From assembly GCF_002854065.1 (NCBI RefSeq), contig NZ_CP024147.1: 64,000 bases of DNA; one strand, written 5' to 3'. Within the stretch, counting starts at the first letter, position 1. Every line of letters begins with the position of its first letter. The translations under genes and the position numbers were made by a program. Under the pieces are notes generated by a model that did not search any database, had not been told where the DNA came from, and saw nothing but the letters and a program-made list of their open reading frames with translations. This document shows positions 23,340 to 59,875 of this stretch, in pieces. Source of the stretch: Escherichia coli. GTDB lineage: Bacteria > Pseudomonadota > Gammaproteobacteria > Enterobacterales > Enterobacteriaceae.

Positions 23340-23425
<86 letters not shown>

Positions 23426-23523
23426 CCACACCGCACATTTCAACAATCTATCTTTCATCCCATATTCATCAACATCCGCTATTATTGATTTCCAGCTTAA
23501 TCATCACCTGATGAACAAAAATA

Positions 23524-36560: not shown

Positions 36561-39191
36561 TTATTGCAATTTCGCGCTGACCCAGCCTTTCACACTGGCT
36601 AACGCTGCAGGTAAGGCCGCAGCATCCGTACCACCGGCTTGCGCCATGTCAGGACGTCCACCCCCCTTGCCGCCCACCTGCTGAGCGACCATACCAATCA
36701 GTTCCCCTGCTTTCACACGATCTGTGACGTCCTTAGATACGCCTGCAATCAGAGAAACCTTACCTTCGGCTACCGTTGCCAGCACGATAATTGTCGACCC
36801 CAGCTGATTTTTTAAATCGTCAACCATGGTACGCAACATTTTCGGCTCAACACCGCTAAGCTCGCTAACCAACAGCTTAACACCATTAACATCAATTGCC
36901 TTACTGGAAAGATTTGCGCTCTCCTGTGCGGCAGCTTGTTCTTTAAGCTGTTGTAGTTCTTTTTCTAACTGACGCGTACGTTCCAGTACTGAGCGCACTT
37001 TATCAGCCAGATTATTGCTATCGCCTTTCAGCAGATGCGCGACTTCGCTTAAGCGATCGCTGTCTGCATGAACGGTGGCGATAGCGCCTTCTCCGGTTAC
37101 CGCTTCGATACGACGAACGCCTGCAGCAGTACCCGATTCAGAGATGATGCGGAACAGACCAATATCACCAGTGCGGCTGGCGTGAGTACCGCCACACAGC
37201 TCGGTGGAGAAATCGCCCATGCTCAGCACGCGTACGCGCTCATCATACTTCTCGCCGAACAGCGCCATCGCACCTTTCGCTTTCGCCGCTTCGAGATCCA
37301 TGATGTTGGTTTCGATCGGCAAATTGCGACGAATCTGTGCGTTCACCAGGTCTTCGACCGCACGAATCTCTTCTGGTTTCATCGCTTCGTTGTGTGAGAA
37401 GTCGAAGCGCAGCACCTTGTCGTTAACCAGTGAACCTTTCTGCGATACATGAGTACCCAGAACCTGGCGCAGCGCAGCGTGCATCAGGTGCGTTGCGGAG
37501 TGATTCAGACGAATACGGGCGCGACGAGCCTCATCAACATCAGCCTGCACCGCGTCGCCCACTTTCAGAGAACCCGCAGCAAGTTTACCGATGTGACCAA
37601 TCGCCTGGCCGTATTTCTGCGTATCTTCCACCGCAAAGGAGAAGTTAGCGCCTTTCAGTTCGCCTTTATCGCCAACCTGACCGCCGGATTCCGCATAGAA
37701 TGGCGTTTGATCCAGCACGACCACAGCTTCCTGGCCTGCATTGATGGCATCAACCGCTTTACCATCAACAAACAGCGCAGTCACTTTGCCGTTCAGTTCC
37801 AGATGGTCATAACCTTTAAATTCAGATGCACTGTCAACACGGATCATTGCGTTGTAATCGGCACCAAAGCCGCTGGCTTCGCGCGCGCGACGACGCTGCT
37901 CTTCCATTGCAGCTTCAAAACCAGCTTCGTCAACTTTGATGTTGCGCTCACGACAAACATCAGCCGTCAGGTCAACCGGGAAGCCATAGGTGTCGTACAG
38001 ACGGAAAGCAGTTTCACCATCCAGCGTATCACCAGAAAGTTTTGCCAGCTCTTCATCCAGCAACGCCAGACCGCGCTCCAGAGTACGAGCAAACTGCTCT
38101 TCTTCAGTCTTCAGCACCTGCTCAACCTGCGCCTGCTGGCGTTTCAGGTCTTCACCCGCAGAGCCCATAACGTCGATCAGCGGACCAACCAGTTTGTAGA
38201 AGAAGGTTTCTTTCGCGCCGAGCATATTACCGTGACGCACTGCGCGACGAATGATACGACGCAGTACATAACCACGGTTTTCATTGGACGGCATTACGCC
38301 ATCCGCGATCAGGAACGCACAAGAACGAATGTGGTCAGCGATTACGCGCAGCGATTTATTGCTCAGATCGGTTGCGCCAGTAACTTTCGCTACCGCCTGG
38401 ATCAACGTGCGGAACAGGTCGATGTCATAGTTAGAGTTAACGTGTTGCAGCACCGCAGCAATACGCTCCAGACCCATACCGGTATCTACAGACGGCTTCG
38501 GCAGCGGTTCCATCGTGCCATCGGCCTGGCGGTTGAACTGCATGAAGACGATGTTCCAGATCTCAATGTAGCGGTCGCCGTCTTCTTCCGGACTTCCCGG
38601 AGGGCCACCCCAAATGTGGTCGCCGTGATCGTAGAAGATTTCGGTGCACGGGCCGCACGGACCAGTGTCACCCATCTGCCAGAAGTTGTCAGATGCGTAT
38701 GGCGCACCTTTGTTATCGCCGATGCGAATAATACGTTCGCGCGGGATCCCGACTTCTTTTTCCCAGATTTCGTAGGCTTCGTCGTCGCTTTCATAGACGG
38801 TAACCCACAGACGCTCTTTCGGCAGGGCAAACCATTTTTCGCTGGTCAGCAGTTCCCATGCAAACTGAATGGCATCGTGTTTGAAATAGTCGCCGAAGCT
38901 GAAGTTGCCCAGCATTTCGAAGAAGGTATGGTGACGCGCGGTGTAACCGACGTTTTCCAGGTCGTTGTGTTTACCACCCGCACGCACGCAGCGTTGGGAA
39001 GTGGTAGCGCGGGAATAATTACGCTTGTCGAGCCCAAGGAACACATCCTTGAACTGGTTCATCCCGGCGTTGGTAAACAACAAAGTTGGGTCGTTATGGG
39101 GTACCAGGGAGCTGCTGGCAACTACCTGATGTCCCTTACTATGGAAAAAGTCGAGAAACGCCTGACGGATCTCAGCGGTGCTCTTGCTCAT
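36561..39191 (-). CDS. alaS: Alanine--tRNA ligase
   Basis: 876-aa [34 protein letters not shown]... Confidence 0.97.
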
Positions 39192-39318
39192 AATTATCCT
39201 GAAATCAAGCTAACGAAATATCGCCACCAGCTCCAGCGTGTCTTAACCGCCGGGCTGGTAACTGAAAAGTGGGAATAAGATAAGTTTTCTTGACTGGGAA
39301 GTAAAATACCGTATGCGT

Positions 39319-39819
39319 TCAGTCGGCAAAATTTCGCCAAATATCCTGGATATCTTCCATCAGATAGCCACGATAGAGCAGAAAACGCTGGATCTTAACT
39401 TTTTCTGAAAAGACAGTTGGCAAAGGTTCACCATATTTTCGCGTCGCCTGATCGCGCGCCAGTGCGCACCAGTCGATGTCACATTCACGCATCGCTTTTT
39501 CTGTCGCTTCGCGGGAAATACCTTTCTGATTCAGTTCCTGGCGAATACGCGCAGGTCCATAACCTTTGCGGCTACGGCTGGCGATAAAGCGCGCAACAAA
39601 TCGGCTGTCATCGAGATAGCCATGTTCATGGCACCAGGCAATAACGCGCTCGTAATCTTCTGCCGTAGCATCAATCTCTTCTGGGCCATTTTTGCCCATA
39701 ATCGGTGCCGCGAGTTTACGTCGCAGTTCTTGCTCACTGTGATCGCGCACCGCCAGAATGCGTACCGCACGATCCAACAGGCGAGCATATGCCGGGCGAC
39801 GGGACGTTGATTCTGTCAT
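39319..39819 (-). CDS. recX: RecA regulator RecX
   Basis: 166-aa [39 protein letters not shown]... Confidence 0.95.
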
Positions 39820-39980
39820 GGCATATCCTTACAACTTAAAAAAGCAAAAGGGCCGCAGATGCGACCCAAGTTTTGCTGATAAACAGATTTAATAGTCAAT
39901 GAGTGTGCAGAATGTTCCCGCAGGCCCAATTCGTTAGAGGATCGAGGTGAGAGTAATTTTTCACGCCAGTGCTGGCCTGT

Positions 39981-40030
39981 ACCCCTCCCCCTCCCCCTCA
40001 CCCTAACCCTCTCCCCAAAGGGGCGAGGGG
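39981..40030 (-). repeat. G-tract-rich structured element in recA-recX spacer (G-rich on the transcribed strand)
   Basis: Plus strand cccctccccctccccctcaccctaaccctctcccc followed by partner aaaggggcgagggga; mRNA sense carries six or more G3-G5 runs. Confidence 0.6.
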
Positions 40031-40073
40031 ACCGTCCGTGCACACATTATCTATTATCATCAATAACGAACGA

Positions 40074-41214
<1,141 letters not shown>

Positions 41215-41712
41215 TCAAGTGTTTTGTAGAAATTGTTGCCACAAGGTCTGCAATGCATACGCAGTAGCCTGACGACGCACCGCATCACGGTCGCCGCTGA
41301 AGCATTCCCTCCGGGTAATGCCTTCACCGCGGGCAGTGGCAAAAGCAAACCAGACGGTGCCGACAGGCTTCTCTTCACTGCCGCCATCCGGCCCGGCGAT
41401 ACCACTAATAGACACGGCATAATCAGCACGAGCCGCTTTCAGTGCACCTATCGCCATTTCCACCACGACGGGTTCGCTCACCGCGCCATGCTGCGCCAGC
41501 GTCTCTTCGCGTACGCCGATCATTTGCGCTTTGGCTTCGTTACTGTAGGTGACAAATCCGCGTTCAAACCAGGCGGAACTGCCGGCAATATCGGTAATCA
41601 CTTTCGCTACCCAACCGCCGGTACAAGACTCAGCAGTTGTTACGGTTGCGCCACGGGCTTTCAGCGCCTGCCCAACCTGTTCGCTTAACTGCATCAGTTC
41701 ACTGTCAGTCAT
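41215..41712 (-). CDS. pncC: NMN amidohydrolase PncC (YgaD, CinA-like)
   Basis: Sequence MTDSELMQLSEQVGQALKARGAT... Confidence 0.94.
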   Translation of the reverse strand: MTDSELMQLSEQVGQALKARGATVTTAESCTGGWVAKVITDIAGSSAWFERGFVTYSNEAKAQMIGVREETLAQHGAVSEPVVVEMAIGALKAARADYAVSISGIAGPDGGSEEKPVGTVWFAFATARGEGITRRECFSGDRDAVRRQATAYALQTLWQQFLQNT

Positions 41713-45912: not shown

Positions 45913-45987
45913 TGAGACTAATAGAATGCCTGATGCGCTACGCTCATCAGGCATACAGGACTTCCGCCACTACATTAAGGAAAAGTT

Positions 45988-52424: not shown

Positions 52425-52525
<101 letters not shown>

Positions 52526-59782: not shown

Positions 59783-59789
59783 GCAACCG

Positions 59790-59875
59790 TGCCGGATGCG
59801 GCGTGAACGCCTTATCCGGCCTACATAGTTCGTGCGACATGTAGGCCCGATAAGCGCAGCGCATCGGGCAATCTG
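59790..59875. repeat. REP elements downstream of ascB
   Basis: gccggatgcggcgtgaacgccttatccggcctac and gtaggcccgataagcgcagcgcatcgggca. Confidence 0.85.

Follow-up and report, generated by a model that had tools for sequence, protein, structure and literature searches.

In the 64,000-nt stretch of Escherichia coli DNA analyzed here (the window), recA and recX, whose product inhibits RecA, are both encoded on the minus strand and are separated by a spacer of 254 bp (39820-40073). A preliminary description of this DNA, made from the sequence alone, had given the spacer the same length, which the coordinates confirm, and had put that of K-12 at much less. Comparison with reference genomes, as that description had suggested, bore this out: the recA-recX spacer is 68 bp in K-12 MG1655 (recX, 2822139-2822639; recA, 2822708-2823769) and 68 bp in BL21, and the site is polymorphic rather than identical in all E. 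coli. The 68-bp unit, ancestral as argued below, comprises in order the recA stop codon, ~20 nt, an intrinsic terminator, and the recX ribosome-binding site (RBS). Alignment of the window with the BL21 site, which lacks the extra DNA (empty), and with two sites that contain it (filled) placed the additional ~190 bp as a single block downstream of the recA stop codon and ahead of the recA terminator hairpin. The features of the region are as follows, in window coordinates.

39319-39819, minus strand: recX coding sequence (166 aa), from the open reading frame list; the same gene is annotated by RefSeq in matching genomes
39820-39837, minus strand: recX leader with the RBS AAGGA, same as in the short allele (alignment to the BL21 empty site)
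39838-39867, minus strand: native recA intrinsic terminator, a GGGTCGC-ATCT-GCGGCCC hairpin plus U-tract, downstream of the insert
39868-40063: inserted composite BoxC element, palindromic and MITE-like, ~184 bp plus a 12-bp hexamer expansion, with ends approximate to a few bases
39873-39882: left arm of the outer inverted repeat, TTGCTGATAA (inverted pair I3, 90% complementary), equivalent to the family left end TTGCTAACAAAC
39890-39919: left arm of the sub-terminal inverted repeat, 30 nt (inverted pair I1), 70% complementary to 40027-40056
39915-39953, plus strand: decayed type-B BoxC unit, TTCCCGCAGGCCCAATTCGTTAGAGGATCGAGGTGAGAG, alignable with the intact type-B units found in other composites
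39954-39981: central spacer of the composite, TAATTTTTCACGCCAGTGCTGGCCTGTA, about 27 nt, conserved among copies (family alignment)
39982-40016, minus strand (mRNA strand): G-tract cluster of the preliminary description, ggggagagggttagggtgagggggagggggagggg, a 35-mer with six G-runs
39982-39993, minus strand: two extra GAGGGG hexamers (CCCCTC on the plus strand), missing from the common filled allele (strain S3)
39994-40029, minus strand: intact BoxC/PIT/TM-ECO unit, type A with one mismatch, CCCTCGCCCCTTTGGGGAGAGGGTTAGGGTGAGGGG
40027-40056: right arm of the sub-terminal inverted repeat (inverted pair I1)
40054-40063: right arm of the outer inverted repeat, TTATCATCAA (inverted pair I3), equivalent to the family right end CTTTGTCATC
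40074-40076, minus strand: recA stop codon TAA, 10 nt upstream of the BoxC element on the mRNA
40074-41135, minus strand: recA coding sequence (353 aa plus stop), from the open reading frame list

The recA terminator is identical in the BL21 empty allele, is conserved across Enterobacteriaceae, and was the sole terminator-like site found in 39700-40200. A promoter scan of the same interval returned no promoter-like site, and none inside the element able to drive recX, while a permissive Rfam scan of 39000-41500 matched no family. An open reading frame of 75 aa with a GTG start (39816-40043, minus strand) crosses the element and owes its Gly/Arg-rich product to the G-runs; it is unannotated by RefSeq in matching genomes and is probably spurious.

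The preliminary description had drawn attention to a cluster of G-tracts on the mRNA strand with a near-palindromic partner beside it. Both are present: six G3-G5 runs (lengths 4, 3, 3, 5, 5, and 4) occupy 39982-40016, and the C-rich hairpin partner CCCCTCGCCCC directly adjoins ggggagagggttagggtgagggggagggggagggg on its 5' side in the mRNA. The region gave the G4Hunter maximum of the 64-kb window (2.64; runner-up, 1.72), and when both strands were scanned it contained the one canonical motif of four G3+ runs with loops of N1-7 in the 64 kb. With six runs, the cluster has the sequence pattern of a G-quadruplex (G4), i.e., at least four runs of G3+ with short loops, and it is not a chance feature. 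Four of the six runs make up an ordinary BoxC unit, and the other two are supplied by the two extra GAGGGG hexamers.

BoxC is the repeat otherwise named PIT (potential intrastrand triplex) or TM-ECO (Holder et al., 2015, NAR, PMC4666352); it is also listed as BoxC in PMC2267715, and earlier work on it (Bachellier et al., 1990s; Hoyne and Maher, 2000/2002) is cited here as summarized in PMC4666352. The 36-nt unit CCCTCGCCCCTTTGGGGAGAGGGTTAGGGTGAGGGG matched MG1655 TM-ECO nos. 7, 11, and 15 (Table 1, PMC4666352) at 36/36 positions, and a regular expression for the consensus CCCTCNCCC-N3-6-GGGNGAGGG-N3-GGGNGAGGG matched the minus strand at 39995-40029. In K-12, type-A and type-B units are paired in inverted orientation at five loci (PMC4666352). 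In the window, a type-B homologue is present at the expected distance from the type-A unit, but this partner is decayed, and the TM-ECO consensus expression found no match within it (39915-39953). The contrast between the decayed partner and the pristine type-A unit is left unexplained by simple neutral decay acting on both halves. A search for other genomic copies, which the preliminary description had proposed, was carried out at high sensitivity on 5,426 complete E. coli genomes and gave a per-genome median of 13 places with BoxC-related sequence; all of the copies that we fetched were intergenic. The window copy is like the published elements in being intergenic, multi-copy, and strain-variable, but its locus lies outside the 23 TM-ECO copies reported for K-12 (PMC4666352), and neither recA nor recX was found mentioned in the searched portions of the supplements to Holder et al. 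(PMC4666352).

We aligned the window copy with those of ygfF-gcvP, alx-sstT, and fepB-entC in K-12 and of yggN-yggL and gldA-yijF in other strains. The aligned family unit is ~168-170 bp long and consists of two BoxC units, the central spacer, and conserved outer ends TTGAGATTGCTAACAAAC ... ACTTTGTCATC. Unlike the BoxC motif as published, then, the window copy is part of a ~170-bp unit with conserved inverted ends. At ~196 bp, the element is under 300 bp, non-coding, and bounded by terminal inverted repeats, and it has filled and empty sites among E. coli genomes with empty outgroups, as is characteristic of MITEs. It resembles the MITE-like repeats ERIC/IRU, YPAL, Correia/NEMIS, and RUP in its length (~170-190 bp), its imperfect terminal inverted repeats, its presence/absence polymorphism, and its predicted co-transcription with a neighboring gene as a long RNA hairpin. 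In contrast to those repeats, it has a core of two triplex-type G/C modules and has neither an identifiable target-site duplication, no direct repeat having been found at the recA-recX or gldA-yijF junctions, nor, to our knowledge, a transposase known for BoxC. The empty allele does not match the ~10-15 nt that flank the element on each side, and no precise insertion junction could be drawn. Holder et al. reported no association of TM-ECO with transposons, phages, or plasmids (PMC4666352).

Our principal conclusion, to which we assign a probability of roughly 0.8, is that a single copy of a BoxC composite, a dispersed and non-autonomous palindromic repeat, has been added to the ancestral 68-bp unit. 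The preliminary description had mentioned a small inserted repeat element as an alternative to its structural reading, and it is this alternative that the presence/absence polymorphism, the dispersed copies, and the terminal inverted repeats uphold. While the BoxC/PIT/TM-ECO family is already known, the locus, the rare hexamer expansion, and the sharing of the site with other repeat families are new here. Among other named repeats, the old 'RSA' repeat (152 bp, 6 copies) fit the composite poorly in copy number and size, and Delihas' RU-2 (YPAL) and RU-3 (a BIME) differ from it in sequence.

The composite is missing from recA-recX in BL21 and K-12. At this site it was present in 1,634 of 5,425 complete E. 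coli genomes (~30%), and ~3,790 had the short form, which includes K-12, BL21, and O157:H7; O26 and O111 genomes are among those that carry the filled allele. The recA-recX region was also compared across 79 species representatives. Spacers of 66-73 bp with the same stop-terminator-RBS layout were found in most genera (Enterobacter, Klebsiella, Raoultella, Kosakonia, Phytobacter, Trabulsiella, and several Citrobacter), and E. whittamii and the E. coli species representative had a short, K-12-type spacer, nearly identical between the two. The short form is therefore ancestral, and the element was gained. Were the polarity reversed, with the long spacer ancestral and the 68-bp K-12-type spacer a deletion derivative, one could point to the bases beside the element, which differ between alleles (the short allele's TTGTTTGATACACAA is loosely like the element end), and to the filled allele in another Escherichia species (L014). 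However, more than 50 species of other genera have spacers of 66-73 bp with the same layout and no BoxC, and together with the near-identical short forms of E. whittamii and the E. coli representative, this makes such a deletion hardly credible.

The gain of the BoxC composite probably took place by insertion, be it transposition, recombination, or a hairpin-targeted event. The same element, with the same decayed half, is carried by a second Escherichia species (strain E1V33), which points to an old polymorphism or to recombination as the means of spread within Escherichia. Holder et al. read TM-ECO variability as instability, and insertion or BIME replacement was not discussed (PMC4666352); at recA-recX, in contrast, the arrival of the element is a gain.

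The hexamers set the window apart from the common filled allele, in which a single CCCCTC unit takes the place of the window's three. Using stringent E-value cut-offs on 5,426 complete E. coli genomes, we found the three-hexamer form in two genomes, each one mismatch from the window, and a two-hexamer form in two more, as against ~1,630 genomes with the one-hexamer allele; no complete E. coli genome matched the window's element exactly, and no hexamer expansion occurred among the other fetched BoxC copies. The G-run feature is a rare, recent expansion atop a common repeat, and the hexamers would have been gained via replication slippage in the G-rich tract. Next to them, at position 39981, the window has A (gtaCCCC), while every other aligned filled allele has T (gttCCCC). 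BoxC-type triplex motifs with one extra GAGGGG were also observed in unrelated metagenome contigs (L100, L103, L104, L110, L111, L113, and L118) of 36-62% G+C. Since the motif and its expansion occur in contigs of such varied composition, they are not confined to Enterobacteriaceae, and since several unrelated contigs have the extra unit, slippage at this G-run appears to recur.

The expansion also bears on the behavior of the DNA itself. Compatible with gain of a BoxC composite is the possibility that, when the DNA is replicated or recA is heavily transcribed, the BoxC unit transiently adopts a triplex, hairpin, or cruciform and so becomes a hotspot of slippage or rearrangement. TM-ECO loci have been tied to higher local variability among E. 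coli strains (Holder et al., PMC4666352), and the change in GAGGGG copy number, which lengthens the third-strand G-run relative to published BoxC units, falls exactly at that run; BoxC-type motifs of unrelated metagenomic contigs have the same extra unit. In a related Escherichia species (L016), five tandem BIME-plus-hairpin units come after a truncated remnant of BoxC at this site. However, in vivo DMS footprinting detected no stable triplex (PMC4666352), insertion of elements would account equally well for much of the 'variability' at such loci, and the ancestral state at recA-recX is empty. Considering also that the one-hexamer allele is very stable (~1,630 genomes versus 4 with expanded forms), we regard DNA-level instability as a tentative addition to the main reading.

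As RNA, the element was predicted to fold from its outer ends inward into one long hairpin (-72.5 kcal/mol; z = -3.5), a fold that 0/200 shuffled sequences equaled. In the predicted structure, the decayed C-rich arm base-pairs with the canonical G-runs, and the terminator hairpin is intact; the two extra hexamers (12 nt) alone stay unpaired, in the apical loop. The C-to-T changes in the decayed arm were considered as a sign of selection preserving G-U pairs, but just 3/5 changes fit, which is too few.

The leading idea of the preliminary description was that a stable structure formed by the G-runs could modulate readthrough from recA into recX. As an RNA G4 attenuator, the six runs would fold as a G4 in the recA-recX transcript and change how far transcription or translation extends to recX. 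The canonical pattern and the highest G4Hunter score of the window are in its favor, and the motif G3+N1-3, present six times on the mRNA strand, is of the kind seen in bacterial regulatory G-quadruplexes. Since the two extra hexamers are predicted to lie unpaired in the apical loop, the last four runs of the expanded allele (GGG-TGA-GGGGG-A-GGGGG-A-GGGG) could form a short-loop G4 with the local BoxC hairpin unmelted. Purine-motif triplexes do not form in RNA (PMC4666352), so a triplex competitor would be absent at the RNA level. Unlike regulatory G-quadruplexes, however, the runs have strong competing Watson-Crick partners, the four canonical ones being paired with the C-rich arm in the predicted fold, and the same core is a triplex as DNA: CD and NMR on type A with and without the mismatch demonstrated an intrastrand purine-motif triplex in single-stranded DNA, the canonical 36-mer giving a triplex and not a G4 by NMR (PMC4666352), and the window's 36-mer is the type-A-mismatch sequence of Table 1 in that study. 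In reporter tests, PIT elements had no promoter or terminator activity, and they had no effect on RNA polymerase (PMC4666352). Nearly all filled genomes have one hexamer, and the three-hexamer form is common to 2/5,426, which argues against a selected function. Guo and Bartel are said to have found, in 2016, that RNA G4s are depleted or unfolded in bacteria. ViennaRNA with G4 enabled predicted a G4 for alleles of at least three hexamers only; its G4 energies looked unreliable, rising implausibly with copy number, and the prediction was discounted. G4 formation and function are unsupported here, and we consider a G4 attenuator disfavored, though not refuted: it is a low-probability reading, and a plausible one for the rare expanded allele alone.

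According to Pages et al. (2003), as cited in PMC3542578, recX is expressed via ~10% readthrough at the recA terminator. In the window, this terminator and the recX leader are both unchanged, the difference from the described system being ~190 nt of extra, presumably structured RNA ahead of the terminator. Lying upstream of the terminator, the element would be transcribed as part of the recA 3' UTR and of the ~10% readthrough transcript carrying recX, and would fold as a long hairpin in both. With the terminator and recX RBS untouched, it would have little or no effect on recX attenuation. Therefore, considering the predicted fold, the published inactivity of the core motif, and the ~10% readthrough, we regard the element as, most likely, a transcribed passenger in the recA 3' UTR, and take this as the default reading. 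Nothing here shows that the element regulates recX.

The main functional rival to a passenger is a modest effect of the hairpin and its terminator context, whereby the ~190-nt hairpin and A-rich sequence alter recA mRNA stability or termination and shift the RecA:RecX ratio without a G4. With the insert, the terminator stem is immediately preceded by AGCAAAA, whose predicted pairing with UUUUGCU in the U-tract would extend the helix and could alter termination efficiency, although the short allele also shows some pairing between upstream sequence and the U-tract. The folding energy and z-score of the element are consistent with an effect of this kind, REP stem-loops in 3' UTRs are known to stabilize mRNA or to terminate transcription (PMC3333891), and recX dosage depends on the ~10% readthrough (PMC3542578). 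However, the proposal is built on prediction, PIT elements lacked terminator activity in reporters (PMC4666352), and the many unrelated inserts tolerated at this site in other taxa suggest low constraint. An effect on RecA:RecX is thus unlikely in our estimation, but a 190-nt structured insert by the recA terminator in ~30% of E. coli is a cheaply testable natural variant for SOS tuning. If there is no effect, as expected of a passenger, the locus is a strain-variable repeat site and a size marker, and calls for caution in assembling G-rich hexamer tracts.

The stretch between the recA stop codon and terminator took different elements in different lineages. REP/BIME units, with their RAYT (TnpA-REP), are like the BoxC composite in being palindromic and in lying in 3' UTRs near terminators, and BIMEs are found at this site in E. 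albertii and, in K-12, at the yggN-yggL and gldA-yijF junctions where other strains have the composite; unlike them, the BoxC core is unrelated in sequence and has no GTAG/CTAC tetranucleotide. BoxC is not known to be linked to RAYT. At both yggN-yggL (L004:1440-1700 versus L093:5610-5820) and gldA-yijF (L094:1150-1520 versus L097:2140-2455), K-12 has a BIME at the very junctions where some strains have a BoxC composite. The outer ends GATTGATAACAAA ... TTTGTCATCGCC are retained in both alleles of yggN-yggL, where the BoxC composite is the minority allele (65/5,425 genomes). Ordinary REP/BIME units occur elsewhere in the window (23350-23430, 45920-45960, 52430-52520, and 59785-59835), and the TTTGTCATC-type flank found around BoxC composites is missing from them; therefore, this flank is not a general REP feature.

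The arrival of a BoxC composite at an ancestrally empty site shared with other repeats bears on how BoxC/PIT elements spread. In the boldest reading, BoxC composites would be truly mobile and target the terminator-proximal hairpin sites used by BIME, REP, ERIC, and IS200, and the four-run tract in the apical loop of the three-hexamer allele would fold as an RNA G4 that shifts RecX:RecA. We consider this combination very improbable. If it were true, mobile BoxC would explain BoxC/BIME allelism at identical junctions at three loci, and an RNA G4 in the three-hexamer allele would amount to strain-specific SOS tuning.

Several further observations concern these sites. Approximately 2,400 genomes lack ygfF and the BoxC composite that K-12 has in ygfF-gcvP, and have a single REP-like unit instead (isolate 538, bglA-gcvP, L098:760-960); this was rejected as a clean swap of alleles, being a larger indel without ygfF. 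The recA-recX spacer of E. albertii (238 bp; L018:1263-1500) has a BIME with a copy of the recA terminator hairpin on either side, one degenerate and the other intact, and the 3' junction of this BIME, TTTGTCAGCAAAACCT-GGGTCGC, is closely like the TTTATCAGCAAAACTT-GGGTCGC of the E. coli BoxC allele. In Escherichia sp. MOD1-EC7003 (1,022 bp; L016:479-1500), the truncated BoxC remnant is followed by approximately five tandem units, each composed of a BIME and a terminator-like hairpin copy, GGGGCGCATTTGCGGCCC, and the hairpin seems to have been co-amplified with the BIME. Between the recA stop codon and terminator, Silvania confinis (L030) has an ERIC/IRU element, two Citrobacter species (L020 and L092) have REP-like units, and Salmonella arizonae (L025) and Kluyvera sichuanensis (L043) have other hairpins or palindromes. 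In E. coli GmM077, the recA-recX spacer contains IS200C (tnpA; L099:3121-3899), another hairpin-seeking element.
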